Source: Abditibacteriota bacterium (GTDB lineage Bacteria > Armatimonadota > UBA5829). From it: 64,000 nt of DNA. The notes under the pieces were generated by a model that saw nothing but the letters and a program-made list of their open reading frames with translations, ran no database searches and was not told where the DNA came from. Positions 1 through 28,079 of the stretch are shown piece after piece. The stretch spans positions 30,707-94,706 of the forward strand of contig JAFSVJ010000028.1 of assembly GCA_017445025.1 (NCBI GenBank). The letters run 5' to 3'. The position numbers and the translations under genes were made by a program. The stretch's first letter is position 1; every line of letters starts with the position of its first letter.

Positions 1-908
1 CTTTCTATTTCTCTATTAAGATCTGTAGTATTAAAATCGGACAAATCTTTTTCTTTTTCTGATAATCTATCTAAGTCAGGGAAAATTTTATACTTATAAT
101 CCTTAGTATCATTAAAAGAAATACCGGTATATTCTATATCTTTTATGTTGCCACTCTTTTCTCCGATTTTTTCATTTAATCTATCAATTTCTTTTGCCTT
201 TGCTTCATTTTCAACCAACTGCTCAAAATCAAACTCATCTGTAAACTCTTTAAGTTTTCTTTTTGCCTCATCAAGGGCAGTTGCTGATGAATTAAATTTA
301 TCTAAATCAATTAAGTCTTTCCCTATCTTTATTTTTCTATTAAGTTCTTTAATTTGATCGATATTAGCATCAATTTCTTTTTGAAGATCTTTAACTTTAT
401 TCCAAGCTTCTTTTTTACCTTCAATATTCTTTTTATTTATCTCTAAATCAATCATTATTGGTTTTATATCTTCAGTTTTAGTTTTTCTCGGCTTCTTATC
501 AACTAAATTCAAATCACATGTTCCGATTTTAGCCAATAAATCATCATAATTAGAGAATTTTCCGTTTACCAAACTGTCTAAATTCAAGTCATAAAATCCA
601 TCCGGTCTTTCACCAATTGGCATAGACCAAATATCTTCTTCTTTTTCAACATTTGTATCAAAAGTCACCTTTTGTCCGTCAAGAGTTGCTTCACCTTTAA
701 TAGAACCGTAAGTTTCTTTAGATTCATGTCCTCTTTTAAGTCTTTCTCTCCAAATAATACCTTTTATGGCAGAACATAAAGTAGATTTCCCGCTACCGTT
801 TTGACCTAAAACCACATTGATTTTTTTTAAGTTATCTAAAGATAACCTTTTTATTTTTCTGTTTGGATAACTGTCAAGTTTTATGTTTCTTAATTCTAGT
901 TTACTCAT
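1..908 (-). CDS. SbcC/Rad50-like AAA ATPase, N-terminal part (gene continues past window start)
   Basis: Manual minus-strand translation from ATG at 906-908 gives MSKLELRNIKLDSYPNRKIKRLSLDNLKKINVVLGQNGSGKST..., a Walker A motif near the N-terminus followed by Lys/Glu-rich coiled-coil-like sequence. The start overlaps the stop of the upstream phosphoesterase gene by 8 nt, the typical sbcD-sbcC arrangement. Confidence 0.6.
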   Translation of the reverse strand, partial: MSKLELRNIKLDSYPNRKIKRLSLDNLKKINVVLGQNGSGKSTLCSAIKGIIWRERLKRGHESKETYGSIKGEATLDGQKVTFDTNVEKEEDIWSMPIGERPDGFYDLNLDSLVNGKFSNYDDLLAKIGTCDLNLVDKKPRKTKTEDIKPIMIDLEINKKNIEGKKEAWNKVKDLQKEIDANIDQIKELNRKIKIGKDLIDLDKFNSSATALDEAKRKLKEFTDEFDFEQLVENEAKAKEIDRLNEKIGEKSGNIKDIEYTGISFNDTKDYKYKIFPDLDRLSEKEKDLSDFNTTDLNREIE

Positions 909-2181
909 TTTTATCACTCTCCCCCGGCAAAATATCAATTAAAGATTTTCGAATAAACTTCAATAATTCTTCATCATCTAAATAATCATAATAGCCATTA
1001 CGAGCTGGTTCTGTATACTCTTCACTTTGTTCTTTGTATTTAACAAAACTATCACCATATTTTTCAATAAAAGTTCCATCATCAATTGACAATATCATTT
1101 CAGCCACAACACCTATAGCATTAGGTTGTTTTGCCATTTCTCCCAAATTATACACACCTTCTATATTATCAATAAATTCTGATACATAAACATCTTCTGC
1201 CACATAACCGTTTACGGCAGATTGGTTTTCTTCCATTTCTTCTCTGATTTTATCATGTTTTTCTTTTGAAAGATTTCCGATTAGGTTCACCTTATATAAA
1301 TTTAAACTATGTTTACATTCCAAATTTTCATTTAAAATAGAACTTAAAGAATGTTCATCACTAAAATCTGACACATCCGCATCCACTAATTCATAATATA
1401 CTTTTGAAAAAGATTCAAAGCAGAAATTAACCTTATCTAATTTTTCATCTAATTCCAACGTCCAAAAACCATGTTCACCCTTTTCACCAAAATCAAAAGC
1501 CTGAGGAGAACCTAAACTAACATACTTATCTTTTTCTTCTTTTTTATGAGTGTGACCAATTAAAGTAATAATAGAGTTATTTATTACATCACCATTTAAG
1601 CTGTCTTTAAATGGGCCATATTTATTATCTTTTTCATTAGCATTATAATCCCCGTGAATCATAATTATATATTTATCGTCTTCAATTTTTAATTTTATTT
1701 CTTTATTATCTTCATTTTTTAATTTTCTTTTAAATGGATTTGTTTTTAAATCATCATCTAATCCGAAACCGTAAATACTTAATCCATTAAGATCAAACCT
1801 TTGCCACTTGCAACCACAACCTATCAAATGAACGAAAGAATAAGGAGTATTAGATAATAAATCTGAAAGTCGTGACTTATCATGATTTCCCGGAATCATA
1901 ACAACTTCTATATTTTTATCTTTTAGTTTTTCAAAACCGTTATTAAGAATTTGACGTGACGTAAAAGTGGATGTATCCTCATCTAATATATCCCCACAGA
2001 TTAATATAGCATCATAGTTGTTTTGAGAAGCTATATCAATAATATCATACCAAGCTTTTTCCGCAGTAAAATCTTCAATATTATATTTTTCAGGTATTTT
2101 TTTTGAAAAATTACCCAAGTGTAAATCTGCTGTGCAAAGAATTTTCATATTACATTCCTCCTTGTCTTTTTTATTTCTCAA
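901..2181 (-). CDS. SbcD/Mre11-like calcineurin-type metallophosphoesterase (DNA repair exonuclease subunit-like)
   Basis: N-terminus MKILCTADLHLG, then GDILD and GNHD metallophosphoesterase motifs. 426 aa. Translationally coupled to the downstream ATPase. Confidence 0.7.
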   Translation of the reverse strand: MRNKKDKEECNMKILCTADLHLGNFSKKIPEKYNIEDFTAEKAWYDIIDIASQNNYDAILICGDILDEDTSTFTSRQILNNGFEKLKDKNIEVVMIPGNHDKSRLSDLLSNTPYSFVHLIGCGCKWQRFDLNGLSIYGFGLDDDLKTNPFKRKLKNEDNKEIKLKIEDDKYIIMIHGDYNANEKDNKYGPFKDSLNGDVINNSIITLIGHTHKKEEKDKYVSLGSPQAFDFGEKGEHGFWTLELDEKLDKVNFCFESFSKVYYELVDADVSDFSDEHSLSSILNENLECKHSLNLYKVNLIGNLSKEKHDKIREEMEENQSAVNGYVAEDVYVSEFIDNIEGVYNLGEMAKQPNAIGVVAEMILSIDDGTFIEKYGDSFVKYKEQSEEYTEPARNGYYDYLDDEELLKFIRKSLIDILPGESDKNE

Positions 2182-2273
2182 TATTATATACCGAATTTTT
2201 CAAAATAAAATCTAAAAAAAACAGTGTTTTTTATGGGATTTTTATAAATGTCTATATTTTATGACAAATGTCT

Positions 2274-2612
2274 TTATTTTATCTCAAGTTTTTGTCTGTT
2301 GCCACATTTGCGACATGTGAAAGTTGTGTTCATACTTATGGAGGCTCTTGTTTCGGAAGAATTCTCCACATTGCCACATTTTTCACACTTTCTACGAATT
2401 GTTATTAAGTGTCCGTCATCTTTTGTGATAACACAACCCTGTATTGCCACACGAGGAGGCTTTTTGGTTCTCTCAAAAATGCTTTCGCTGTCTGTGGTCT
2501 GTGAGCTACTGTAACTACTTGTTTCGTTATCATTTGTGGTGCAACACAGACCTACAAAGCATAAACCCAAAGCCAATACCAACACTACAATTTTTGTTTT
2601 TAAACTCTTCAT
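2274..2612 (-). CDS. small secreted/membrane-anchored protein with C-terminal CxxC...CxxC zinc-ribbon
   Basis: N-terminal hydrophobic signal-like segment (IVVLVLALGLCFVGLCC), a Ser/Thr-rich linker, then CEKCG...CRKCG. Confidence 0.45.
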   Translation of the reverse strand: MKSLKTKIVVLVLALGLCFVGLCCTTNDNETSSYSSSQTTDSESIFERTKKPPRVAIQGCVITKDDGHLITIRRKCEKCGNVENSSETRASISMNTTFTCRKCGNRQKLEIK

Positions 2613-2628
2613 TTTTTATCTCCTTATA

Positions 2629-3687
2629 TTAATAAATATAACCTTTACAGGATAACATAACAGCTTGTGCAAAGCTGTGAGCGCTTGTCCATTTCTCAGA
2701 TAATTCTTTCGGTTTATAAAAAACACTCTCAGTATGTAGTTTCTTTGCTCTCAACAAATCACAACAGATTGAAATAACTTCAAAATTCAATATCTCAAAG
2801 GGACCTATCTCTACCTTAGATTTATCCTTATATAGATAAAATGTCTTTCCGGATTCAATGTAAATAACACAGTTAAGATTAAAACTATCCATTACATCTA
2901 AAACAGATGATATAAACCCTTCCCTATCATCATTTTTAAAGGGAACAAGCAAAGATTGTTCTTCATATTGATGAAGCGTATCGGGGATTGGTTGGTTATT
3001 TCTATAATAACTGTCCCTCAATTGTTCCTTTCGTTCCGCAAATCTTAACTTCTTTTCACGAAGTTTCTTTTTTAAATTCTCGTGCTTTTCTGTATCAACA
3101 CTTAATTGCTTATGTTTCCTTTCAATAATTTCTTTATCACTCAAACCTTCTAAAGAAGCGTTAGAATCAACACCATAAACATTAATTATCACAAAATCGT
3201 GAAATTTAGATAAAAAACCAATCTCATCTGCGGATCTTCCGGGACATACTACGCTAATCCATTTTGTAGCTTTTGAGATTTTTTCAAGATAATCTTCCAG
3301 ACTTTTTTGCTTATCTTCATAATGTGCCTTTTTTGCTTTTTTTATAATATGTTTAACAATATCTGTTTCTTCACTAAGGACATTTAACAAAAATGATTTA
3401 CCGACTTTATTTATAAATATTAATGAATCGGCATAATTTTCATCCTCACTCAATTCAACTATGGATAATATATGTGCTTGTGGGCTGTTTTCTTCTACCA
3501 TATCTTTTGTTAAAGAGTGGCAGGAATATCTGTCCATCTTGTCAAATAATTCTTCACGATACTTAGTGGCTTTCTCTGCTCCGGCAAGGTCGCCTTCTAC
3601 TTCTAAAGCTTTGATTGTACCATAAGCTCGGTTGAACTCTGTGTAGAGCTGCATTGGAATTTCTTTTAATTTTTTTCCTAATAACAT
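2629..3687 (-). CDS. hypothetical protein (352 aa), first gene of operon with zinc-ribbon protein and SbcCD-like pair
   Basis: Long ORF with protein-like composition and no motif I can assign. Its stop is 16 nt upstream of the next minus-strand start. Confidence 0.5.
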   Translation of the reverse strand: MLLGKKLKEIPMQLYTEFNRAYGTIKALEVEGDLAGAEKATKYREELFDKMDRYSCHSLTKDMVEENSPQAHILSIVELSEDENYADSLIFINKVGKSFLLNVLSEETDIVKHIIKKAKKAHYEDKQKSLEDYLEKISKATKWISVVCPGRSADEIGFLSKFHDFVIINVYGVDSNASLEGLSDKEIIERKHKQLSVDTEKHENLKKKLREKKLRFAERKEQLRDSYYRNNQPIPDTLHQYEEQSLLVPFKNDDREGFISSVLDVMDSFNLNCVIYIESGKTFYLYKDKSKVEIGPFEILNFEVISICCDLLRAKKLHTESVFYKPKELSEKWTSAHSFAQAVMLSCKGYIY

Positions 3688-3807
3688 TTGTATTCCTCCA
3701 TAATAATTATAACATTTTATTTAATCTTTGTCAACAGATTTATAAGGTTTAAAAAACATAAAATAAATTGTCTTTTAAACCCGACAAAACTGTTAATTTC
3801 TGACGGG

Positions 3808-3880
3808 TATGGGTGGGGAGATATTTTTCTTTTGTGTCACACTTTTCTCCTTTTCTCTCTCCCCACCCATATATTATAAA
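3808..3880. repeat. perfect 13-bp inverted repeat (atgggtggggaga / tctccccacccat) with ~45-nt spacer, upstream of the 352-aa gene
   Basis: Read directly from the sequence. GC-rich palindrome in an AT-rich leader region. Confidence 0.4.
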
Positions 3881-4007
3881 AAAAAACATCTAACAATCTA
3901 CTTTTAAGAGTAATTAAGTGCCTAAACCATATATAGCCATATTTTCAAAATTGTATATTTCATAAAAATTTATCATATATGACTAATAACACTCTCTGTT
4001 TAGGATT

Positions 4008-4199
4008 CTATTTTTCCAATACCTTTTCTTTAAACTCTTGTGGTAAATCTAAGTATTCAAGAACAACAAAATCTATACCATCTACATTATCTACAATTAA
4101 GTCAACGGCTACTAAATCATCTTTCCCTTTAATCTTATGCTTAAACATTATAACGAGGACACTTAATTTTAACATAGCAGCTACAGGTAAATTATCCAT
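4008..4199 (-). CDS. small hypothetical protein (63 aa)
   Basis: ORF lying 11 nt downstream of the 64-aa ORF on the same strand. No recognisable motif. Confidence 0.3.
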   Translation of the reverse strand: MDNLPVAAMLKLSVLVIMFKHKIKGKDDLVAVDLIVDNVDGIDFVVLEYLDLPQEFKEKVLEK

Positions 4200-4210
4200 A
4201 GATAATTCAA

Positions 4211-4405
4211 TTAATTCTTGAAAAAAGATGCTCTGTCAAAACAGGTCTCTCCATACCCCTCTAACCCTATCATTCTTAAAATGTCACTATTCCATATTAG
4301 GGTTATTGTATCTATTTTGGCTTCGGCTCCTTTGGCAATAAATTTTACCAAATATTGTTTCGTTACGGAGATTATCTCCTTTTCATTTTCGTTTTTTGTT
4401 GACAT
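4211..4405 (-). CDS. small hypothetical protein (64 aa), paralog-like to 15070..15213
   Basis: Preceded by RBS GGAGGTGA. It sits immediately downstream (minus sense) of repeat R1. A C-terminal segment NSDILRMIGLEGYGE resembles VSDLFGSKVVELMGE in the 47-aa gene that follows repeat R2. Confidence 0.45.
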   Translation of the reverse strand: MSTKNENEKEIISVTKQYLVKFIAKGAEAKIDTITLIWNSDILRMIGLEGYGETCFDRASFFKN

Positions 4406-4435
4406 AGCGTCACCTCCGATTTAAATATTTTGGTT

Positions 4436-4545
4436 AAGGTTTTTCCCCTTCCATATATATATAGTCATATTTCCACCCAAAATTGCCATTTTTTCAAAAA
4501 ATTTTTTTTAAAAAAAGTGATACCATGTTTTCACATAGTATCACT
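4436..4545. repeat. ~110-bp direct repeat R1 (terminator hairpin plus putative promoter module); second copy at 15321..15446
   Basis: Shared core ccttccatatatatatagtcatatttccacccaaaattgccattttttcaaaaaa plus gataccatgttttcacatagtatc in both copies, with small indels. Confidence 0.8.
4508..4543 (-). terminator. putative rho-independent terminator for the island-1 operon (inside repeat R1)
   Basis: Minus strand reads gatactatg-tgaaaac-catggtatc, a 9-bp stem with one G-U pair, followed by a U-run. Confidence 0.4.
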
Positions 4546-4635
4546 AAATAAATCTTAAATATATGAATTGTAATTGGATGATAATTTTACAATCACAATT
4601 CACATAAAGGCTTAATTTTAATATTGATAAAAATC

Positions 4636-6228
4636 TTACCAATTATTTCTGCGTTTTGCCCACAATGATTGTGCTTCTTTCACTAAATCATACATAAACT
4701 CTCTAACCATACCCGAAAACAAATTATCAATACTAGTATCCGGGAATAATTCATTAAATGCTTCTAATATATGAAGAATATAGTCAGGAGTGGCTGTAGG
4801 CAAAACATATTTATTCCTAAGATAAATTGAATCATGAGGACCAAAATCATCAAAGAATTCAACTGTCTTACTCTTTCCTGCTTTAATATAATTATAAAAG
4901 TCTTTTTCCAACTTTAAGTGTTTTTCTTCTTTTACTATTCTTTCCCACGCAGCTCGACCAAATAAATCTTTAACAGAGAATTTTATTTTCATTCCTGAAG
5001 GAAGAAGGGAAGCCAAAGCCAAAGCTATATCCAAAAGAGAGTCCAATTTTGGATACATTAAATTCTTTATACTATTCCAAACTATTTTACCCACAAAATC
5101 TTCCAAATTCAAAGGTTTAACACTATGTGATGAAAGCCAATGATCTTCTGTTATAATTATATCATCATCACCAAATTCTTTATCTAATCCTTCAATATTA
5201 TCGAACGATCCACCTTCGTCATCATATTCCATTTCATCATAATCTTCATCATTTATGTCTATTCCGGAAAATATTATATTAAAGGCCCTTAAAATGCCTA
5301 AAATATAATCTAAATCTGCAGGTGGTAATTTGACACTATTTCTTTCATAGAGTGTTTCTTCTACCGGGCCGTTATCCTCAACAATTTCTATAGATTTACT
5401 TTTTCCCTCTTTGATATAATTATAAAAGTCTTTAAAAAGCTTTTGATCTTCTTCAGCACCAACAATTCTATCCCAAGCTTTTTTGCTAAAGAGTTTGCGA
5501 ATATTAAATTTAATTCCCTTGCCGGCAGGAAGAAGATTTGCCAAAGCAATAGCAATTTGGAGCAAGGTTCGTGGTTTTTTGTTATGATTATCTATAGTAT
5601 TTTTAATTAAAACGCCAAAAATGTCACATTTATCTAAAGGATACTCTTCAGGGAATAAAGCATTAAAGGAATCCATAATCTCTCTTATATATTCCTCGTC
5701 TGCGGGAGGCAAAACCACATCATTTCGCTTGTATATAGCTAATTTAGGGGTGATATCATTATAGATTTCAAGAGCAGCTTCTTTTTTGGCTTTAACATAA
5801 TCATAGAATTCTTCTGTAAGACCGGAATATAAGCCATATTTTTTGATTCTCTTCAAAGCTTCTCTGCTAAACAATTCCTCTATTCTAAACATGGTATTGA
5901 AAGGCAAGAGGCAAGCTAATCTTACAGCTATTTCCAACAATGTCAATTTTCTCTTGGATTTGCCAGATGAAATTGTTTTTACAATATTATTATTACTCCT
6001 AAGAGATAATTTTGTATAGATTTTTAATGACTCAGAAAGAGTGATTAAATCCAAATCAGATTTATCTCTAAGGTTTTCAAATTCCTCTTCAACTTCTTGA
6101 GCTAATTTTAATGCTTTAATTTCATCCCACAGAGATGCATTAAATAAAGCTGATACGGTAAAAGCGGAATCTTTAGGTTTGTTCATTGCCTCGCTTATGG
6201 CAATCTTTGCAATGGTTTTAGGGTCCAT
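4636..6228 (-). CDS. hypothetical protein with three tandem ~110-aa internal repeats (last gene of island-1 operon)
   Basis: Three repeat units each contain LLxIAxxLAxLLPxG ... FxxKxW(D/E)RI ... LPPAD(x)DYIxxIxxxFN. The start is 17 nt downstream of the SNF2 gene stop. Confidence 0.6.
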   Translation of the reverse strand: MDPKTIAKIAISEAMNKPKDSAFTVSALFNASLWDEIKALKLAQEVEEEFENLRDKSDLDLITLSESLKIYTKLSLRSNNNIVKTISSGKSKRKLTLLEIAVRLACLLPFNTMFRIEELFSREALKRIKKYGLYSGLTEEFYDYVKAKKEAALEIYNDITPKLAIYKRNDVVLPPADEEYIREIMDSFNALFPEEYPLDKCDIFGVLIKNTIDNHNKKPRTLLQIAIALANLLPAGKGIKFNIRKLFSKKAWDRIVGAEEDQKLFKDFYNYIKEGKSKSIEIVEDNGPVEETLYERNSVKLPPADLDYILGILRAFNIIFSGIDINDEDYDEMEYDDEGGSFDNIEGLDKEFGDDDIIITEDHWLSSHSVKPLNLEDFVGKIVWNSIKNLMYPKLDSLLDIALALASLLPSGMKIKFSVKDLFGRAAWERIVKEEKHLKLEKDFYNYIKAGKSKTVEFFDDFGPHDSIYLRNKYVLPTATPDYILHILEAFNELFPDTSIDNLFSGMVREFMYDLVKEAQSLWAKRRNNW

Positions 6229-6245
6229 TTGTTTCTCCTTTTTAT

Positions 6246-9200
6246 TTAGTGTTTTTTATTTTCATATCCTACTATTATTTTGGTTTCTTTTTCCTCAGTC
6301 CTGTTTATAGAATTGATATATTTGGATTTACCTAAATCTTCATACAATTCTGTTATTTTTGCTTCCAATTTATCATCATCTTTCCAATCTTTGATTTTTC
6401 TATAATCAAAAGTTGACAAAGTCCCTAATCCTGTAATATCATCTATAAGGGCTTTTATGAAATCTTTATACTTGGCGCAAGAATGATATCTGTCTTTCTT
6501 TATTATACCTTCAAGAGACTTAAGAGTATTATAGGCTTTTTCTTCATCTCCCTTTTTAGGTAAAGAATGTCTGATTCCTGCATTAACATCTATAAGCTTA
6601 GGATACATATTCCAGAAATTATCGGAAAAAGTTTCAAGTGGGGTATCCGGGTCACACTTGATTTTATCTATCAAATCCTTATTAAGCTTGGTCTCAACAT
6701 AACTTTTGCTTGTATCAAAATTAAAGTGGCGAACAAACATATCATTTTTAAGAATAAAGAGTATTAATTCATTGTCTGTGCCTAATTTACAGGTTTTGAT
6801 TCTGTAAGGCATTTTATCAATATTCTTTAATGCTTCCTGAACTTTAGGATCTGTGCTTTCTTCAATGGATTTATAGAGTTTTCGAACATAAGTGTAAAAG
6901 CTCTCTTCTTCATCCTCATAAGGCAACTTATGTAACGCTTCGGAAAGCTCCGCCGCAGTAGGCTCTTCATCCGGAGTGAAGATTTTGGCATCTTCACCTA
7001 AAATATTGTGAATCAACAGCATTTTTTGAGTGGCAATTTGTTTAACTCGAACAGTGTCGGAAGTTAATTCTGAAGGGAAGAAGTTATAAATGTAAAGTTT
7101 GTCAAAGACTTTTGCGGAAATTCTGTTCATTCTTCCCACTCTTTGAATAACACGCACCGGGTTCCAAGGAATATCATAGTTTATTACAACACCGGCTCTG
7201 TTAAGGTTATGTCCTTCACTCATTTTATCCGTAGAAACAAGAATGTGTTTATCGTTAGTTTGGTCTTTGCAAGAATAATCAAATTCTTTTTCTATTTCTT
7301 CAATTTTTATACTGGAACCATAGACATATTCTATGTCATCTCTATGTAATCCGTCAAATTTATTCCTTAGATGTTTAACTGTATCCGCAAATTCTGTAAA
7401 TACCAATATTTTTCTATTAGGTTCTTTTGCTTTGATTCCATCTACAATTTTAACCAATTCTTCAAACTTAGGGTCTTTATCAACCATCTTAAGGTCTTCA
7501 CACCTTTCTTTAATTTTGGTAAATAAATCTATATCTTTTTTAATATCCTCTAAAAAATCCGCTTCGCCTGAAGGGGTAAATTCATATACATCATATTCTT
7601 TTCCCTTTTTGGCTTGCATTTCTTTTAACTTTTCTAAAACTTCATCATCATCCAAATCGACACAATCTGTCATAAATTTTCTGTTTAATACATAATAACC
7701 ATTAGTTGTGACAAAGGAATATATTTCAATATTTGTTTGAAGATATCTTTTAACGGATTCATAAAAAGCACCAAAAGAAGACTCAAGTCTTTTAACTATG
7801 ATTCTTTTCATAAAATCATACAATTGATCTTGATACTGTTTTGCCAATTTCTTAGATACAGAATTCTTTGCATCATAATTTACAGGACGATAAATAGCTC
7901 CTATAAAATCTCCGCCGGTTTTAGAAAAATACCTCAATATATCATCATAAAAATCTGATAAATCCGGCTCTAAAAAATATAAAGCTTCTCTGGGGTCTTC
8001 AATGGTAGAAAGGTCTCCTGTTTCTTTTTTATAATCCGGGTTGTTTAATATATCAAGTCTGTTTCTTCTTATAATATAACTTGAAATATCATCTTTGACC
8101 TCTCCCCCAACATCTTTCATCATTTTGTGCAATTTATCAATCTCAGGTTTACCTATTGAAGCAACTTTAACGCCGGGCAAGTATTTACTCAATAATCTAT
8201 CAATCTTAGCTAATTTTGCAGGATCTGTAGATCTATAATCTTTAATAATAGAATTAATATCTTCTATACGAGCTTTAACATCCATAAACTTTTCAAACAA
8301 AGAATATCCATAGGATGCAGATACAAATTTAGTAGGTAAGAACAATTTTAAAATACTATGAATATCCCAAAAGGTGTTATTGAATGGAGTAGCGGTTAAT
8401 AAAATAACTTTTTTGTTTTTACAGATAGTATTTAGATAACCATAGGTATCGTTTTTGTCATTTCTAAACCTATGAGCTTCGTCGATAATTACATTATCAA
8501 AATCAGAATATAATTTTCTCTCATAAATATACTTTAAATTGGAAAAGCTTGAAGATTCAACCTCACCTCGTATATTAAATTTATACTTATAATCTTTCCA
8601 ACCATATGAACCTGGTTCACCTATAAGATTAGGTGGACACAAAATAAGAGTGTTACCTGGCAATTGGGTGGCTATTACAGAAGCAATAATACTTTTTCCG
8701 AGACCTACAACATCACCGAGAATAACTCCACCATAGTCTTCTATTTTACCCAAAGCCTCACGAATAGCATCTATTTGAAATCTAAAAGGCTTAAATCCGG
8801 CTTTATCCAATATTTGAGGAATATTTTTATCATCTTCCATATCCAATGACAGATAGGTTTTTAGTATATAGATATAGGCTTCATAAGGGGTCACCTTTCT
8901 GCAATGGGTTTCCTTAGTCAAGATTTCAATAATATCTTTCTTTATAGAATCATCTTCGGTAATTAAAATAGCATCTCTCCAAAGATTTTCAAAATATTCA
9001 TCTGCTTCAATATAATCTTTAGCATGATTTACTTCAACATTAAATTCATCTTGACGGAACAAACCGGCAGATGTAAAATTGGAAGACCCGGTTATAAAAC
9101 GATTGTCTTTTCCATCTTTAGGATAGGCAAAGAGATATAATTTTGAATGATTATCTTTATTGGTTTTACGGATGATGATTTTTCCTTCTTTAATCCATTT

Positions 9201-9521
9201 TATAAAATCCTCATATTGGTCGTAAAACTCTTTTTTATCCAGAGCTTCAGAACAAAAGTTTTCTCTGACAGAAGAGAGAAATTTCTCAACGCCTTCACCG
9301 GAAATAGCCTTAACTATAATACTCTCGGAATTAAGGCCCACAAGTATTCTTAATTTAAGGTCATTCTTTTCAGCTTTGGCTTTTAGTTCTTGGTAGAGTT
9401 CCGGGATCGCGGAAAAATAGAAGTATCCCACCAAGAATTTCATTTCTGTAGATGTAGGAATTAAATCTTGAAATTTGGCTTTTAATGTGGTTGTGTCGTT
9501 ATTAATAATTAAGTTTGGCAT
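6246..9521 (-). CDS. fused phospholipase-D-family nuclease / SNF2-family (SF2) helicase
   Basis: N-terminal HKD motif NHSKLYLF...GSSNFTSAG. Helicase motifs: I (GDVVGLGKS), II (IIDEAHRFRN), III (LLTATPFNN) and VI (VIQRVGRMNRI). 1091 aa. Confidence 0.8.
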   Translation of the reverse strand: MPNLIINNDTTTLKAKFQDLIPTSTEMKFLVGYFYFSAIPELYQELKAKAEKNDLKLRILVGLNSESIIVKAISGEGVEKFLSSVRENFCSEALDKKEFYDQYEDFIKWIKEGKIIIRKTNKDNHSKLYLFAYPKDGKDNRFITGSSNFTSAGLFRQDEFNVEVNHAKDYIEADEYFENLWRDAILITEDDSIKKDIIEILTKETHCRKVTPYEAYIYILKTYLSLDMEDDKNIPQILDKAGFKPFRFQIDAIREALGKIEDYGGVILGDVVGLGKSIIASVIATQLPGNTLILCPPNLIGEPGSYGWKDYKYKFNIRGEVESSSFSNLKYIYERKLYSDFDNVIIDEAHRFRNDKNDTYGYLNTICKNKKVILLTATPFNNTFWDIHSILKLFLPTKFVSASYGYSLFEKFMDVKARIEDINSIIKDYRSTDPAKLAKIDRLLSKYLPGVKVASIGKPEIDKLHKMMKDVGGEVKDDISSYIIRRNRLDILNNPDYKKETGDLSTIEDPREALYFLEPDLSDFYDDILRYFSKTGGDFIGAIYRPVNYDAKNSVSKKLAKQYQDQLYDFMKRIIVKRLESSFGAFYESVKRYLQTNIEIYSFVTTNGYYVLNRKFMTDCVDLDDDEVLEKLKEMQAKKGKEYDVYEFTPSGEADFLEDIKKDIDLFTKIKERCEDLKMVDKDPKFEELVKIVDGIKAKEPNRKILVFTEFADTVKHLRNKFDGLHRDDIEYVYGSSIKIEEIEKEFDYSCKDQTNDKHILVSTDKMSEGHNLNRAGVVINYDIPWNPVRVIQRVGRMNRISAKVFDKLYIYNFFPSELTSDTVRVKQIATQKMLLIHNILGEDAKIFTPDEEPTAAELSEALHKLPYEDEEESFYTYVRKLYKSIEESTDPKVQEALKNIDKMPYRIKTCKLGTDNELILFILKNDMFVRHFNFDTSKSYVETKLNKDLIDKIKCDPDTPLETFSDNFWNMYPKLIDVNAGIRHSLPKKGDEEKAYNTLKSLEGIIKKDRYHSCAKYKDFIKALIDDITGLGTLSTFDYRKIKDWKDDDKLEAKITELYEDLGKSKYINSINRTEEKETKIIVGYENKKH

Positions 9522-9618
9522 TTTTTACCTCAAAACAATTAGTATACCCTAAAACTCGGAGAGTTTCTTGGAGGGGATTTTACCACTCTTTGTAAAATCA
9601 CAAAGAGGGGTAATATCA

Positions 9619-11460
9619 TTATATTTTTTTAAAAATCAAATTAACCAATTCTGTAGCTATTTCTTCCCCTCGCTCAGTTATATCTTTCCAAGTAGTAAAA
9701 GTAGTATAGCTTTCAGAATCAATTAAGGCATTTCTCTTGCTTGTTATTGGATCTTTATAAAATATCCTGGTATTTCCGATTTTATTTAAGCAAGAATCTT
9801 TAAAGTTTTTGTAAAGTTTATCCTTACACTCCTTAGGAAAATCACAACCGGATTTATAAACTGTTATACCATTATCATCATCTAAACCATCCATATAGTA
9901 TTGATATGAAGGATCAGAAGAACTTGGATTTTCGGGACATATATAATCTAAAATAAGCTCATCAAAATCTAAATCCAATAAATTATAAGCTTCTTTATAA
10001 TCAATGGTTCCTGATCCTTTTACGGATGCCATATAAAAAGCCAATAATATCATTGCCAACTTATTCTTATATGCATTCATATTTATAATTTCGGACAGAA
10101 CTGAACTATCAGGCAACTTGTTTATATAAGAATCTATTGTAGAAATTATATTAGTTATATTATAAGGTATGGTTTTATCAATCATATATCCCAATATATC
10201 TTTATACAAAGGAATTGAATCTTTACTGTCCCTATTGCAAACTGAAAGATATAAAAAAGAGTGTAGAATTACTTTTGAAACTGCATCTTCTACTTCCTTG
10301 GCAGTCAAAAAGGTTTCTTTATAATCATGCAAAAGTCTGAATATAAATGGCTTTGGATGTTTGTAGGAACCGTTTACAAATATTTTATAGAAAAATTTGA
10401 ATTTATCTCTGTTGATTAAGGTATATGTTTTATCTTCTGAGGTCAACATTTGATAAAACTCAACTTTATCATTTAAATCATCCAAGAATTTCTTCAAAGC
10501 TTCCGTTTCATCGCTTACACCATAATATTCTACCAATTCGTCTACAATCGTTTTTTTGAAATGACTTATTTTAATATTATTATTGTAAAACTTGATAAAA
10601 GCCTTTATATAAGTAGTTAAATAGTCATATAATTGGTCATTGGTTTTAATAATAAGATTTCCCCAAACAGACAAATAATGATGATGACTGGCTTCATCAA
10701 GTTTTGAGAAAATATAAGTCTTTATAAGATCTATATCTTCCAATTGTTTTCCTTTGGAATTAATTGATTCAAAGATAGAGAAAACTTTGGTTTGTTTGCA
10801 GTTGGAATCTATCACTATAAACCTAACAAAATTTAACAAATACTCGGCAAAAGCCAATAAATCATTAGAATCCGAAAATTCTTTTTTCAAATATTGATTT
10901 ATAAACTTAAAATTATCTATAACTCTTTTTTCAAAAGAATTGGCCGGGACAAATGATGAAATAAAATCGTCTATATTGGTGGGATCGTCAAATGCATAAT
11001 CAAATAATTGAGCAAAACAGGTTTTTTCTATACTGTTTAGGGAAATTAATCTTTGATCTTTGATATGTTTCCTGCCGACAACTTTCCATAAACAATTCTT
11101 CAATTTTACAATTGTTAAATCGCTTTCAGGTTCTCCGTTTTTTAATGCTCTTGTATATACTGACAAAAAAATCAAGGCAAAGGTGGTTATTCTTTGTTGA
11201 CCGTCTATAATATCATAAATGTTAATGTTTCCGTTAATTTTAGGTAAGGGAGTCTCATAAATTATAATATTACCGGTGTAATATCCTTCACTTCTTTCAT
11301 CAATATCGGTTAAATCAAAGACTTCTTTAATATCAATCAACAACTGATCAATATTTTCCTTATCCCAAGAATAAGGTCTTTGATACACAGGAACTGTGTA
11401 AGCTGACTTGAATAAATCTTCCAAGTCCATTGAAGCGGGGTCAAAAGTTTTTTTTGGCAT
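9619..11460 (-). CDS. DUF262 (ParB/Srx-like) + C-terminal DUF1524-like nuclease; GmrSD/BrxU/SspE-like type IV restriction-like enzyme
   Basis: N-terminal YQRPYSW and DGQQRITT motifs typical of DUF262. 613 aa with a C-terminal Cys/His-containing region. The start is 21 nt downstream of the MTase stop. Confidence 0.7.
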   Translation of the reverse strand: MPKKTFDPASMDLEDLFKSAYTVPVYQRPYSWDKENIDQLLIDIKEVFDLTDIDERSEGYYTGNIIIYETPLPKINGNINIYDIIDGQQRITTFALIFLSVYTRALKNGEPESDLTIVKLKNCLWKVVGRKHIKDQRLISLNSIEKTCFAQLFDYAFDDPTNIDDFISSFVPANSFEKRVIDNFKFINQYLKKEFSDSNDLLAFAEYLLNFVRFIVIDSNCKQTKVFSIFESINSKGKQLEDIDLIKTYIFSKLDEASHHHYLSVWGNLIIKTNDQLYDYLTTYIKAFIKFYNNNIKISHFKKTIVDELVEYYGVSDETEALKKFLDDLNDKVEFYQMLTSEDKTYTLINRDKFKFFYKIFVNGSYKHPKPFIFRLLHDYKETFLTAKEVEDAVSKVILHSFLYLSVCNRDSKDSIPLYKDILGYMIDKTIPYNITNIISTIDSYINKLPDSSVLSEIINMNAYKNKLAMILLAFYMASVKGSGTIDYKEAYNLLDLDFDELILDYICPENPSSSDPSYQYYMDGLDDDNGITVYKSGCDFPKECKDKLYKNFKDSCLNKIGNTRIFYKDPITSKRNALIDSESYTTFTTWKDITERGEEIATELVNLIFKKI

Positions 11461-11481
11461 ATTTGCCTCCTTAAAATTTAA

Positions 11482-14400
11482 TTATTTTTCAATTATTTTA
11501 ATTTCGTCATCAGTTAGATCATAAAGCTGATACACAAGGGTGTCGATTTCTTTTTCAAGGCTTGTGGTGTCCTTGCCTTGCTTTTTGCCCTCTGTAATTT
11601 GATCCACCAAATTCTCTATTTGATTGGCTATCTGCATGTTATCATCTTTTATTTCAGGAATAGGAAGTTTAATAACATCTTGAGTAAACCATCTTACAGC
11701 ATTTGTTCCTAATGAATTTCCATAATATGATATAAATGCATATCTTATTAATCTTGAATTTAATAAACCACAAATATATTTTACATTATTACCTGTAAGC
11801 ATATAACAAGTATTTAATAAATAATAACATTCATAATCATATATCATTTCTCCATCTGATATATCAGCCCATATAATTTTAGGTTTTTCATAATCTTTAT
11901 AATAATTTATTGTAGTTTGAGTTTCATACCATTTTCCAGAGGTTTTACTTCTTGCCTTAAAAGAACCATAATTTTTACCTGTCTGTTCAAGTCTTCTTTT
12001 ATCAAAATTATCTAAAAAGTATTTTTCAATTGTGGGATAATCTTTTATATTCAAATGTAAAGCCGGAAAAATTCCTATCACCCACAAATTAGCCCAATGA
12101 TATTCATATCTCTTTACATCTGAACCACGCAAGATGGGTTTAATTATTTTCTCCGTTCTCTGTCGTTCGGCAGATGTGGAACAGTTGTTTAAAATCTCGT
12201 CTTTGGTAGCTGTATCTATAATAAAAGCGTCATTAAAGCCGGTTTTAATACCATAATTAATGGTAATATCATCCCATTCTCCTAATGGTGTGCCTATATG
12301 CTCTATTTTTTTCTTTAGTGATACTTCTTCTCTTGATCCTATAAACCAACTGTCACTTGATAATTCTTTTAATATGACAGAATTATTGGTTATATAATCT
12401 CCCAAATTATCTTTAGGATTTTGACCTTTTCCCACCTTTAATGAACAAGCTTCAAGATCATAATGTATTTTTTCCTTTTTAATCAATAATATATTTGTAT
12501 CTACAGTTGCACTGTCAAAGACTCCGGGGCCTAAGTCTATCAACATCTTGGGGTTAAAATTGCAGAAATAGCCTCTTAACTTTTCACCATATCCGGCACG
12601 CATCCATTTGTTGGAGGTGATATAACATAAATTACCACCTGTCTTTAACAAATTCATTCCTTTTTCATAAAATAAACAATATATATCTCCACTACCATCA
12701 TGGGTTTCAAAACCTTGGGAAGCATATCGGTCTCTTAAATCTTTAGGTTTTATTTTTTGAAGTGGTATATAAGGCGGGTTTGCTATAACAATATCAAATC
12801 CTTCTTCAATACCAAACATCCATTTCGGATCAAACCAAGGGCAGGATTTGTTCTCAAAAGGATTCCAATCACATATAAACTGAATTCTTTCACTATCAGA
12901 ACCAATTTCTATGGCCTCATCTCTTATATTTTTTAATTTATATAAATACTCATCTTTTAATCTGTCTTTATCGTTTCCATGAGCATTTAAATAATCTTTT
13001 CTTATTTTTTGTAAATCTTTAATATCATTATCAAAATAACTATCGGAAAGATCTTTTGAGTCCGGTAAAGCAATTAAAGTATTGGCAGATACAAATTTAA
13101 AATCCAAATTAGGCAAAGGGAAAATATTTCTGTTTTCAACACCATCGTCTACTCTTTCATCTACAATTAAAGATAAAAAACATCTAAGCCTTGCAATATC
13201 CGTAGCCATGGTTTGTATATCCACACCATAAACAGAATTTCTGATAATTCCCAACTTATGTATATAACTTATGGCTTCTTGATTAAGTTTTGTTTCATAA
13301 GCCTCAAAAGCTTCCGTTAAAGTTGTTTTATCATGAGCCAGTATATAGTTTCTCCATAACTTTCCGTCGACATCCAATTTCCCTAAAATAAATAATATCT
13401 TCTGTAGCAGTCCCATAGGAAAGGCACCGGAACCACAAGCGGGATCAAGAATCTTAATATTGTATAAAGCTTCTGTTAATATTACTGTGACACATTGATC
13501 AAAAGGATTAGTCTCTTCATTAACGTCAAACAATTTATCTAACTTATCTTTATCTTTACAGAATTTATACAAATACTCCTTTAAACTCTCTTCACACATA
13601 TAATCCACTATTTCTCTAGGAGTATAAAAAGAACCGGAAGACTTTCTTGCATCTTCTTGGGTGACAGGATCTATAAATGCCAAAAGGTTTTCAAATATTT
13701 TACCCAACATTTCAGGGTCCACAGATATATCTGTATCGTTTACAGAGTTTTCATCTATAGTAAAATTAAATCTCCCGAATAAATCAAATAGTTTTATAAA
13801 CCATTGATTTGAAACTTTTAACACACCTGTGTTTGAATAATCACCTTTGTATTTATCTTCATCAATACATTGGAACAAACCACCGTTTAAATAAGGAACA
13901 AAATTAAAGTCATTTTGAGAAACAATATTATTATTTAATGTTTTATTATATTCTGTATAATCTCTTAAAGATTTGTTCTTATTAAGAACTTCAAAAAACA
14001 ATGTTTGTAGAACATAAGTATAGTATCCGCAATCGGAAGTCATTTTTTCAATAGTTTCAATACTTAAAATCTTATCCGGAATAATCTCCTTTCCTTGAAT
14101 TGATTTCTTTTGTTTCAAAAACCAACAGAATAAAATTCTTCCCAACAAACGAATTATAAATTTATTCTTATCTTCTTCCAATCCTTGATATTTCATCAAA
14201 GTCTTATCATTTTGTAAAGACAAATATAAGTCTTGAATTTCTTTATAAAATTCTTTTGTTACTTTTTCGATGGAGAAGGAGTCTGATAAGTCTTCAACCT
14301 TAAGCCACCTTTGATATTCTCCGGAAGAAGTCCGGTTTGCCACATATTTTTCAAAAGTCTTGTTGTTCTTAACAACCAATTCACCCTCATCATTTTCTTC

Positions 14401-14868
14401 CATTTGGAAAAAATGGGTTTGTCTGTTATACTTTGTAAACTCTACCTTTCCTTCACCGGGATAGATTTTTCTGACAAGGGACAGACGACAAGAAAGACTG
14501 TCGTTGTCATAAAAAGCCACCAAAGCAAAATCATAATCACTGCTTTTAATCAAATCCTTGATAATCTTAAACTGAAAAGATTTACTGCTTTTTTCCGTTA
14601 AGTTGTGGGACTTATCTTCACCTTTTTTTTCATTATACTCACTTACATAATCTTTATAATTGATTAAATAGCAAATAACATTATCGGAGCTGATTTTTCC
14701 ATATCCCAATTCTGTGATTGGACAACGGTTATCATCTGTAGTCTCCCTTGTTTTAGCTTCATCAATAATAGGATTGAATTTTCTTCTGATTAAGTCTGAT
14801 AAATAGGATTCTAATTTTGTTGGTGTTTTTGCCATTTTTAATTCTCTGTCATAATAATCGTTTAACAC
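11482..14868 (-). CDS. large gamma-class N6-adenine DNA methyltransferase (PglX / DrmMI / type IIG-IIL-like), 1128 aa
   Basis: Motif X GSFYTPREIVDYM, motif I ILDPACGSGAF, motif IV IANPPY. Long N- and C-terminal extensions, the C-terminal one TRD-like. Confidence 0.8.
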   Translation of the reverse strand: MLNDYYDRELKMAKTPTKLESYLSDLIRRKFNPIIDEAKTRETTDDNRCPITELGYGKISSDNVICYLINYKDYVSEYNEKKGEDKSHNLTEKSSKSFQFKIIKDLIKSSDYDFALVAFYDNDSLSCRLSLVRKIYPGEGKVEFTKYNRQTHFFQMEENDEGELVVKNNKTFEKYVANRTSSGEYQRWLKVEDLSDSFSIEKVTKEFYKEIQDLYLSLQNDKTLMKYQGLEEDKNKFIIRLLGRILFCWFLKQKKSIQGKEIIPDKILSIETIEKMTSDCGYYTYVLQTLFFEVLNKNKSLRDYTEYNKTLNNNIVSQNDFNFVPYLNGGLFQCIDEDKYKGDYSNTGVLKVSNQWFIKLFDLFGRFNFTIDENSVNDTDISVDPEMLGKIFENLLAFIDPVTQEDARKSSGSFYTPREIVDYMCEESLKEYLYKFCKDKDKLDKLFDVNEETNPFDQCVTVILTEALYNIKILDPACGSGAFPMGLLQKILFILGKLDVDGKLWRNYILAHDKTTLTEAFEAYETKLNQEAISYIHKLGIIRNSVYGVDIQTMATDIARLRCFLSLIVDERVDDGVENRNIFPLPNLDFKFVSANTLIALPDSKDLSDSYFDNDIKDLQKIRKDYLNAHGNDKDRLKDEYLYKLKNIRDEAIEIGSDSERIQFICDWNPFENKSCPWFDPKWMFGIEEGFDIVIANPPYIPLQKIKPKDLRDRYASQGFETHDGSGDIYCLFYEKGMNLLKTGGNLCYITSNKWMRAGYGEKLRGYFCNFNPKMLIDLGPGVFDSATVDTNILLIKKEKIHYDLEACSLKVGKGQNPKDNLGDYITNNSVILKELSSDSWFIGSREEVSLKKKIEHIGTPLGEWDDITINYGIKTGFNDAFIIDTATKDEILNNCSTSAERQRTEKIIKPILRGSDVKRYEYHWANLWVIGIFPALHLNIKDYPTIEKYFLDNFDKRRLEQTGKNYGSFKARSKTSGKWYETQTTINYYKDYEKPKIIWADISDGEMIYDYECYYLLNTCYMLTGNNVKYICGLLNSRLIRYAFISYYGNSLGTNAVRWFTQDVIKLPIPEIKDDNMQIANQIENLVDQITEGKKQGKDTTSLEKEIDTLVYQLYDLTDDEIKIIEK

Positions 14869-15069: not shown

Positions 15070-15213
15070 TTATCTCTCTATACTCTCCCCCATTAATTCC
15101 ACAACCTTTGATCCAAATAAATCGGATACAGTTAAATCCGTCCCTTTTGGAAATCTTATTGCCGCTAAAATGGCAAATGCCAATTTAACAAATACATTCG
15201 TTTTTGAATCCAT
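15070..15213 (-). CDS. small hypothetical protein (47 aa), not in ORF track
   Basis: Manual translation gives MDSKTNVFVKLAFAILAAIRFPKGTDLTVSDLFGSKVVELMGESIER. A GGAGGT RBS lies 3 nt upstream. It sits just downstream (minus sense) of repeat R2, mirroring the 4211..4405 gene after R1. Confidence 0.4.
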   Translation of the reverse strand: MDSKTNVFVKLAFAILAAIRFPKGTDLTVSDLFGSKVVELMGESIER

Positions 15214-15320: not shown

Positions 15321-15446
15321 AAGGTTTTCTTTTCTCCCTTCCATATATATATAGTCATATTTCCACCCAAAATTGCCATTTTTTCAAAAAAAATTTTTAA
15401 ATATTTTTTGACAAAAAAAAAGATACCATGTTTTCACATAGTATCT
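15321..15446. repeat. direct repeat R2 (copy of 4436..4545)
   Basis: Same core sequence and hairpin as R1. Confidence 0.8.
15411..15445 (-). terminator. putative rho-independent terminator downstream of dxs (inside repeat R2)
   Basis: Minus strand: 9-bp stem gatactatg/catggtatc, 6-nt loop, then a 9-U run. Confidence 0.45.
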
Positions 15447-15473
15447 TATTCTTACGAGTTTAAGGGGTAAGGA

Positions 15474-26954: not shown

Positions 26955-28079
26955 TTATGAATTTAATAACTTAAGAATAGTTTCATCATAATTATCAGTA
27001 TAATTTTTTAATACTCTCAAAAATTCTTTAAAATCAGATATTTTTTCCATTTTGCTTATGGTTATCCAATCTAAATCTTTATATTTAGCTTGAAATAAAG
27101 TTTTACTGTTTTTAGGATTTTCAAAATCATATTTAATAATGCCTATACCAAAGGCATTATTTAATCTTTCCATTTCTTCTTGTAATTCTGGTTTATCATC
27201 AATTTCACTTGCAACCAAATATCCTTCATTTGCCCAACTTGAATTTGATACTGCTTGAAAATATGATTTCTTTAAATCCCCAAGAGTTAATGATTTCTTA
27301 AGTTCAAAAGAATAAATAGTGCAAGGAGCATTAGACATTTTTTTTACAAGATCTTGAGTTATATTCTCATATTTATGTGGTTTTACACCAACTATATCCG
27401 GATTCATCCATTCAAAATCCCCTTTTTTACCATTACTTTCTTGAATTCTTTTTCCATAAACATTAAATTTAACTTTTAAATACTCTATAAATGGCATGTA
27501 CATATCTTTTTCATCAAATTTCTTTTTTTCTATAATATGAAATTCTGCTTGTTTATTATCATTATTAAAATATCTTAATTTAAATTTAGCTTCATCAACT
27601 TTGACAAATTCAGAATTATCACCATTATTCTTAATATCTTCATATATAGGAGTTGATAAAGTATCTATAGGATTTTTACTTTTGGTATTTAGTTTTTTGT
27701 CATAACCTTTGTTAACACCGTAAGCCCAAATATCATTTATGTGTGTTGGCTCATTATTTAATTCGGTTAAAACTTCTATGGCAAAATCTTTAAATGTATA
27801 TTTGTTATTATTATAAAGAGGGTTTAGAGAGAATTTCCCTTTATCTATTTGAATAAATTCGGAGTTTTTTCCTTTCTTTTTTATATCTAAGTATAATTGG
27901 GCAGAAATAGTTGCTTCCGGAGTTTTACCGATATTTTTAAGTTTCTTGTGAAAATCCCGAAATACTCCTTGCTCCCAAATTTCCTTAGCAGTTAATATTT
28001 GATTTGAAGCTTTTAAAGTTTCTCTTGCAAAATCCTTGTAAGTATATGCCATTTTATAATCTCCTTTAAAATGTATCAA
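26955..28079 (-). CDS. tandem HARE-HTH domains + C-terminal PD-(D/E)xK-like nuclease domain (restriction-endonuclease-like), island 2
   Basis: Two repeats containing GKTPEATISAQLY / NPIDTLSTPIYEDI that resemble the HARE-HTH of RNAP delta and restriction enzymes. The C-terminal region has NPDIVGV ... YSFELKKS (PD ... ExK). The start overlaps the upstream gene stop by 14 nt. Confidence 0.55.
   Translation of the reverse strand: MIHFKGDYKMAYTYKDFARETLKASNQILTAKEIWEQGVFRDFHKKLKNIGKTPEATISAQLYLDIKKKGKNSEFIQIDKGKFSLNPLYNNNKYTFKDFAIEVLTELNNEPTHINDIWAYGVNKGYDKKLNTKSKNPIDTLSTPIYEDIKNNGDNSEFVKVDEAKFKLRYFNNDNKQAEFHIIEKKKFDEKDMYMPFIEYLKVKFNVYGKRIQESNGKKGDFEWMNPDIVGVKPHKYENITQDLVKKMSNAPCTIYSFELKKSLTLGDLKKSYFQAVSNSSWANEGYLVASEIDDKPELQEEMERLNNAFGIGIIKYDFENPKNSKTLFQAKYKDLDWITISKMEKISDFKEFLRVLKNYTDNYDETILKLLNS

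Follow-up and report, generated by a model that had tools for sequence, protein, structure and literature searches.

A PLD-family nuclease fused to a Swi2/Snf2-type motor and linked to an adenine methyltransferase: a predicted two-gene restriction-modification system in a member of the Abditibacteriota

The gene analysed here lies at positions 6246-9521, on the minus strand, of a 64,000-nucleotide stretch of DNA from an Abditibacteriota bacterium (GenBank assembly GCA_017445025.1, contig JAFSVJ010000028.1, positions 30,707 to 94,706; hereafter the window), and encodes an HKD nuclease of the PLD superfamily fused to a Swi2/Snf2-type ATPase, which we refer to as the HKD-SNF2 protein. Its closest described counterparts come from several systems. 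In Type ISP restriction enzymes, such as LlaGI and LlaBIII, an ATP-driven double-stranded DNA translocase is joined to a nuclease and to a gamma-class adenine methyltransferase that has a specificity domain of its own; a single polypeptide carries all of this, its nuclease being an Mrr-type PD-(D/E)XK enzyme and its helicase resembling those of Type I/III. These enzymes cut away from their site upon collision of translocating enzymes. Class 1 DISARM comprises the PLD nuclease DrmC, the SNF2 helicase DrmD and the methyltransferase DrmMI, together with DrmA and DrmB. In Type-2 BR (Hma) systems, an N-terminal HKD nuclease-Swi2/Snf2 fusion works with a PglX-like N6-adenine methyltransferase; the fusion of HKD-endoDNase and Swi2/Snf2 has been described as the primary effector, and the system has been proposed to be restriction-modification (R-M)-like. 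The defining components of these systems are a DUF499 AAA+ ATPase and, for 98% of them, a DUF3780 gene. Pairs of an SNF2 protein and a PglX-like methyltransferase in fact form the core of class 1 DISARM, BREX-3, Hma/BR and ARMADA.

A second group of counterparts joins PLD nucleases to helicase-like motors. In the Type IV enzyme SauUSI of S. aureus, a PLD nuclease at the N-terminus and an SF2 helicase-like ATPase share a single chain. The enzyme forms a dimer via its nuclease domains, translocates at the expense of ATP and cuts away from its site (Tumuluri 2021, PMC7913695); a recognition domain of its own reads methylated DNA, and no cognate methyltransferase goes with it. In CglI and NgoAVII, a PLD-family nuclease relies on an SF2 helicase-like motor, with long-range translocation preceding cutting (PMC5861437). 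Finally, the very combination of domains found in our gene has been met before: a PADLOC model named 'C3a139: HKD+Snf2' (PDLC01075) originates from a survey of type III CRISPR-associated genes (Shah 2018, PMC6546367), and the exact gene pair of an HKD-SNF2 protein and a methyltransferase was recorded by Milman 2023 (PMC9881135). Together with the helicases of Type-2 BR, these cases show that the HKD-SNF2 fusion is already known, and the novelty attached to it in an earlier reading of this DNA, made from the sequence only (hereafter the sequence-only reading), was overrated, as the protein belongs to a large and already catalogued family.

The interval 6246-9521 corresponds to exactly one open reading frame (ORF) of 1091 residues, stop codon included; that it runs on the minus strand had gone unmentioned in the sequence-only reading. 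The N-terminal PLD-superfamily domain (positions 8979-9446, residues 26-181) is recognised by the Pfam profile PLDc_2 over the same residues (E 5.6e-13, 49.3 bits against a cut-off of 27) and by the N-terminal PLD domain of RE_NgoFVII over residues 112-187 (E 4.6e-9, 36.2 bits against 23.8). It contains the HKD catalytic motif, N124-H125-x-K127 ... G145-S146-S147-N148 (positions 9078-9152), within NHSKLYLFAYPKDG at residues 124-137 and GSSNFTSAG at residues 145-153. It is followed by the Swi2/Snf2-type ATPase motor (positions 6987-8789, residues ~245-845), where SNF2-rel_dom (E 5e-11) and Helicase_C (E 9e-17) both score above the Pfam gathering thresholds, and where we located motif I (GLGKS, residues 273-277), motif II (DEAHRFRN, residues 347-354, with DEAH at 347-350), motif III (TATPFNN, residues 376-382) and motif VI (QRVGRMNRI, residues 793-801). 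Each of these motifs occurs once in the protein. The fusion of the two activities in one polypeptide, as put forward in the sequence-only reading, is thus borne out by motifs and profiles alike, and the two PLD profiles argue against the HKD motif being a chance match.

That reading had also counted a single HKD copy, and both the domain scan and the motif positions agree on one per chain. A candidate second copy, HAK at residues 166-168, was rejected, as it is not conserved: most of the family has D at position 166. In the HKD-SNF2 protein, an Ala takes the place of the classical D of HxK(x)4D.

The protein has at least 6,610 relatives at E ≤ 1e-10 in a large protein collection. The best 120 of these are all of about 1,100 residues and share an identical set of Pfam domains; where named, they are called "helicase-related protein" or "HKD family nuclease/helicase". 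Across 40 aligned homologues (~40% identity), the PLD residues N124, H125, K127, G145, S146, S147 and N148 are invariant, as are, in the motor, the Walker A stretch G273-K276, D347, E348 and H350, the stretch T376-N382, and Q793, R794, G796 and R797. The HKD motif residues are equally invariant in a separate alignment of 31 N-terminal domains, and the conservation of the HKD and helicase residues is far beyond chance expectation. When searched alone, the N-terminal 230 residues retrieve 697 cluster representatives at E ≤ 1e-3, and among the 150 matches listed the full-length proteins, of ~1,040-1,220 residues, all carry the domain at their N-terminus, which indicates a PLD subfamily essentially dedicated to the SNF2 fusion. 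Members of the family were found on plasmids, and the HKD-SNF2 protein matches the phage/prophage family phrog_26785 (E 2e-91).

An AlphaFold2 model, for which 40 homologues were used, reaches a mean predicted local distance difference test score (pLDDT) of 76.7. When this model was compared with the PDB by Foldseek, the top 50 matches were all Swi2/Snf2 ATPases, including Chd1, SMARCAD1, CSB and SRCAP, with Zorya ZorD at rank 26; such a full-length search is dominated by the SNF2 core and bears on that part of the chain, not separately on the PLD or C-terminal domain. Sequence matches in the PDB are DDM1, Chd1 and ISWI. In the model, about 320 largely helical residues separate motif III (residue 382) from the second lobe (~residue 704), and this stretch, together with the top 50 fold matches, indicates a Snf2-type fold with a long helical insertion between motifs III and IV. 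The last ~230 residues (positions 6249-6926, residues ~866-1091) form a C-terminal domain that is modelled confidently (pLDDT ~80-90) and conserved across the family. Pfam gave no match to it even at E 10, and no modified-base reader domain in particular; it is possibly a candidate methyltransferase-docking or DNA-binding module.

The presumed partner of the HKD-SNF2 protein is encoded upstream on the same strand, at positions 11482-14868, and combines an N6-adenine methyltransferase with a specificity domain (Eco57I and TaqI_C). From the GTG at 14868 it has 1128 residues, while the identical NCBI protein begins at Met12 (nucleotide 14835) and has 1117. The S-adenosylmethionine-binding motif I (DPACGSGAF) and the catalytic motif IV (NPPY) are intact and invariant across the methyltransferase family. 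The nearest solved folds are CamA, BREX PglX/BrxX (~1,050-1,100 aligned columns), MmeI and BpuSI.

Concerning a possible nuclease in this protein, PADLOC labels it Type IIG, a type in which the methyltransferase chain also carries an endonuclease domain. We found none. The PADLOC model aligns only with residues 463-1127 of the query, that is, with its methyltransferase and specificity half. Among 40 members of the family the only Pfam families present are Eco57I, N6_Mtase, TaqI_C, MmeI_Mtase, MmeI_hel and DUF7814, and a nuclease family is found in 0 of 40. For residues 1-240, Pfam gives nothing even at E 10; in the N-terminal α/β domain every conserved charged residue is basic, and conserved acidic residues are missing between positions 40 and 200. 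Since no nuclease is detectable in the methyltransferase, the HKD domain is treated here as the putative sole nuclease of the pair.

The linkage of the two genes was assessed in 80 metagenomic loci with relatives of the HKD-SNF2 protein, retrieved by an alignment-based scan, in which ORFs were called and searched with the proteins of the window. Among the 61 loci with at least 1.5 kilobases of DNA downstream of the helicase gene, a methyltransferase homologue lies beside it, on the identical strand, in 60: it is downstream in 57 and upstream, as in the window, in three, and one locus has none. The two genes overlap by 4 nucleotides in 21 pairs, and the gap is below 100 nucleotides in 50 of 63. 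All-against-all clustering of the neighbouring ORFs of the 80 loci gave no third recurrent gene family (helicase 80, methyltransferase 70, next family 6). An equivalent pair, at 31% identity, is present in a Parabacteroides distasonis record listed as a plasmid in PLSDB, and the pair is also found in NCBI genomes. As to the closest helicase relatives, their contigs are too short to show gene context, and a scan of genome contigs with the single protein gave five distant SNF2 relatives at 27-31% identity.

Where the pair is separated, the inserts vary, and include NYN, Schlafen-AlbA_2, RhuM with Fic, Bro-N, IS200, DUF1016/YhcG, 23S-rRNA-IVP, PIN, ImmA/IrrE and AbiEii genes (loci L012, L022, L035, L042, L045, L046, L049, L073, L078, L088 and L089). 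Such classes of insert are the usual hitchhikers nested inside R-M operons. As the pair is linked, no third family recurs and the inserts vary, the conserved unit is a two-gene module. This conserved linkage strongly supports the proposal of the sequence-only reading that the nuclease-translocase works with a methyltransferase. That reading had also placed the two genes side by side, which holds for the family but not for the window itself, where a gene for a 613-residue DUF262 protein stands between them.

The junction between the two genes is a place where small genes of the defence, toxin or mobile kind have landed repeatedly. A different arrangement is seen in three distant relatives (26-34% identity) on Allomeiothermus pMESIL02, Thermus oshimai pTHEOS02 and a plasmid of Thermococcus profundus (L093, L095 and L096), where a shorter 'DNA methyltransferase' gene comes first, a hypothetical gene of 330-600 residues second and the helicase gene last; this may represent a three-gene variant of the system.

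We consider it probable that the HKD-SNF2 protein and the Eco57I/TaqI_C methyltransferase make up a two-gene ATP-dependent R-M, and hence phage-defence, system, with the former as its restriction subunit. As suggested by its family membership, the methyltransferase would read a short DNA site via its C-terminal specificity domain and methylate adenine at this site, so that host DNA is marked as self. On unmethylated DNA, it would recruit or license the HKD-SNF2 protein, whose Swi2/Snf2 motor would then move along double-stranded DNA using ATP. Because each chain would supply half of a PLD active site, two HKD domains would have to meet for cutting, and cleavage would occur away from the recognition site. 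The need for dimerisation, which the sequence-only reading had derived from the single HKD copy, agrees with the SauUSI dimer held together by its nuclease domains. By analogy, the pairing of HKD domains might be either constitutive, in a standing dimer as in SauUSI, or driven by the meeting of translocating complexes as in Type ISP and Type III enzymes.

The activities predicted for the pair match those of Type ISP enzymes, namely a translocase, a nuclease and an adenine methyltransferase with a specificity domain; however, they are distributed over two polypeptides, the nuclease is of the PLD superfamily and the motor is of the SNF2 type, which sets the pair apart from Type ISP proper. More tentatively, with the balance tipping slightly against it, the pair could constitute a distinct class of ATP-dependent R-M system, a 'split Type ISP' made from a PLD nuclease and a chromatin-remodeler-type motor.

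Several considerations weigh against a two-gene R-M system. The function of the family and the binding of the two proteins to each other are predictions from sequence, and the assignment of the HKD domain as sole nuclease draws on negative evidence only. Moreover, a profile of the N-terminal domain found no PLD nuclease among PDB sequences, giving only chance matches at E ~0.05, so that the PLD assignment relies on the Pfam profiles and on motif conservation. Finally, the SNF2 and PglX-like pairs of BREX type 3, DISARM, Hma/BR and ARMADA are parts of larger systems, in which simple cleavage is either not the mechanism or not known to be it.

This last point leads to the strongest competing explanation, a BREX- or DISARM-like exclusion without classical cleavage, in which the pair would sense unmethylated DNA and block phage replication, with the HKD domain nicking or acting as a secondary effector. 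Scores against the curated profiles of PADLOC and NCBIfam place the HKD-SNF2 protein near such systems and outside each of them: the partial matches that score best are SNF2 proteins of defence systems (DrmD, BrxHI/II, HmaA and the PADLOC 'HKD+Snf2' model), but it reaches only 117 bits against a cut-off of 610 for DrmD (NF038317), 84 against 950 for the equivalog NF038318, 111 against 1100 for the PLD-domain anti-phage protein NF042964, 81.6 against 500 for DpdE and 24.7 against 1500 for ZorD. The best full-length match is C3a139 itself, which covers residues 21-853 and has an equal architecture, but with 118 bits only it designates a related family and not the same one; no CRISPR-cas genes lie near the HKD-SNF2 gene. 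On the methyltransferase side the best partial matches are PglX and DrmMI, and the full-length fold aligns with BREX PglX/BrxX.

The likeness to class 1 DISARM extends to the set of activities, a PLD nuclease, an SNF2 motor and an Eco57I-like adenine methyltransferase, with DrmD and DrmMI among the best partial matches, but PLD and SNF2 domains are here in one chain, and neither DrmA nor DrmB (DUF1998) is matched by the genes of the island in which the pair lies, nor is there a third conserved gene in the 80 loci. In the same way, the N-terminal HKD nuclease-Swi2/Snf2 fusion beside a PglX-like N6-adenine methyltransferase is what is found in Type-2 BR, but the DUF499 ATPase is absent from the island and from the 80 related loci, DUF3780 has no Pfam match among the six genes scanned at 901-14868 (all four island genes included), and the PADLOC HmaA profile matches only the C-terminal helicase lobe, with 90 bits. 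BREX-3, BR/Hma and ARMADA are built around the SNF2-methyltransferase module, but the remaining components of BREX, DISARM and BR are missing here and in the related loci. The invariant HKD catalytic residues point the same way, as an active nuclease in a minimal two-gene system would most simply be the effector. We regard exclusion without cleavage as unlikely.

Much less probable still is a stand-alone, modification-dependent Type IV enzyme of the SauUSI kind, with the neighbouring methyltransferase being an independent Type IIG enzyme. The layout is indeed that of SauUSI, a PLD nuclease and then an SF2 ATPase in one chain, followed by a C-terminal domain that occupies the place of the recognition domain and has no assigned family, and the PADLOC label of the neighbour would fit a self-sufficient Type IIG enzyme. 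However, the HKD-SNF2 protein has a Swi2/Snf2 motor and an obligate link to a methyltransferase, and two independent systems would not be expected to lie together in 60 of 61 loci, often with a 4-nucleotide overlap. Neither is a modified-base reader detected in the HKD-SNF2 protein, nor a nuclease domain or a conserved acidic triad in the N-terminus of the methyltransferase, which the PADLOC IIG model leaves uncovered. SauUSI was also absent from the matches when PDB sequences were searched with the whole HKD-SNF2 protein and with the profile of its N-terminal domain. CglI/NgoAVII shares with our protein a PLD nuclease and a helicase-like motor, and the RE_NgoFVII PLD domain of Pfam matches the HKD-SNF2 protein, but there the nuclease (R) and the motor (H) are separate, R reads the site itself and the methyltransferase is of another class.

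The last possibility, a housekeeping SNF2 factor of transcription or repair with an HKD-like motif that has no nuclease role, is effectively refuted, as RapA does appear among the structural matches (rank 30) but the NCBIfam RapA profile scores 56.8 bits against a cut-off of 576, which also removes the grouping with RapA that could have undone the sequence-only reading, the PLD catalytic residues are invariant, the gene lies beside defence genes in a low-GC, repeat-bounded island, and the family is strictly methyltransferase-linked and found on plasmids and in phages or prophages as well.

Within the window, the two-gene R-M system that we favour is embedded in a four-gene island on the minus strand, in the order methyltransferase (14868-11482), DUF262/GmrSD-like gene (11460-9619), HKD-SNF2 gene (9521-6246) and DUF1413 gene (6228-4636). 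Its guanine-plus-cytosine (GC) content is 28-31%, versus 37-39% on the dxs/gdh side. The island is bounded by a direct repeat of ~110 nucleotides, made of a terminator hairpin and a promoter-like stretch. The left-hand copy (15330-15447) directly follows the dxs stop codon, and the right-hand copy (4440-4545) directly follows the DUF1413 gene; the copies are 93% identical over 72 nucleotides, and the hairpin GATACTATGTGAAAACATGGTATC is identical in both. This repeat-bounded island of ~10.9 kilobases looks like, and is consistent with, the scar of an insertion into the dxs terminator/promoter region. None of the genes in the island encodes an integrase. The loci of Milman 2023 (PMC9881135) carry programmed inversions, whereas none was found here: a search for programmed inversion or phase variation of the methyltransferase gave no tandem repeats and no inverted repeats of note.

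The conserved pair has here picked up two extra genes. The first, between methyltransferase and helicase (9619-11460), encodes a GmrSD-like protein of 613 residues (GmrSD_N E 4.6e-32 in Pfam; HEC-06 E 1.2e-34 in PADLOC). Its DGQQR motif is intact, and its nuclease HNH motif reads DYICP, with Tyr for His, where seven homologues at ~45% identity have DH(L/I). It is also ~115 residues shorter than its homologues at the C-terminus (613 residues versus 726-741), and its C-terminal half has no Pfam match at E 10. Defence by HEC-06 depends experimentally on the DGQQR and (E/D)H nuclease motifs, the matching His being required (bioRxiv 2024.01.29.577857), and the copy in the window, judged by these substitutions, may be inactive, repurposed or decaying.

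The second extra gene (4636-6228), starting 17 nucleotides downstream of the helicase stop codon, encodes a 530-residue protein with repeated DUF1413 units (E 1.8e-21 in Pfam, two stretches) and has no match in PADLOC, NCBIfam or PHROG. Other mentions of DUF1413 come mainly from staphylococcal SCC elements. An ORF of 47 residues (15070-15213, minus strand) with a strong ribosome-binding site, located at the opposite end of the island, weakly resembles the N-terminus of the DUF1413 protein (40% over 35 residues, E 0.01 in a one-sequence database). Both DUF262 and DUF1413 were rejected as components of the system, the former lying near the pair in only one of the 80 related loci and the latter in none.

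Between the island and an SbcD/Mre11-like metallophosphoesterase gene (901-2181, minus strand) lie two minus-strand ORFs (2274-3687), one of 352 residues with only a weak PHROG match (phrog_4354, E 2e-4), the other of 112 residues, a putative lipoprotein with a C-terminal zinc-ribbon-like CxxC...CxxC motif. The ORF that follows the SbcD-like gene (minus strand, region 1-2181) runs off the start of the window; it is SbcC/AAA_23-like and has the Walker A sequence GQNGSGKST.

A second low-GC island (27-28% GC) lies at 26955-33124 on the minus strand and contains three genes. One of them (28066-32058) encodes a 1330-residue fusion of a ResIII helicase and an Eco57I methyltransferase, with a Type ISP-like layout, matched over its full length by the PADLOC model REase_MTase_IIG (1023 bits); the others encode a 374-residue HARE-HTH protein and a 357-residue Type II methyltransferase. 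With this fusion, the same genome also holds the alternative solution, in which helicase and methyltransferase are joined in one chain.

The HKD-SNF2 protein is an ordinary member of a very large family whose architecture is already catalogued. Its partner is called "Type IIG" by annotation pipelines and has no detectable nuclease, and restriction itself is probably the task of the neighbouring "helicase-related protein". If the pair is indeed a split Type ISP, many genes automatically labelled 'Type IIG' or 'helicase-related protein' would belong to this class, and the collision or dimerisation of half-site HKD domains would act as a two-site check protecting hemimethylated host DNA. A minimal pair with its own nuclease would moreover be the simplest version of the module that sits inside BREX-3, class 1 DISARM, Hma/BR and ARMADA, and as such it would be a tractable model for how this module senses unmethylated DNA.

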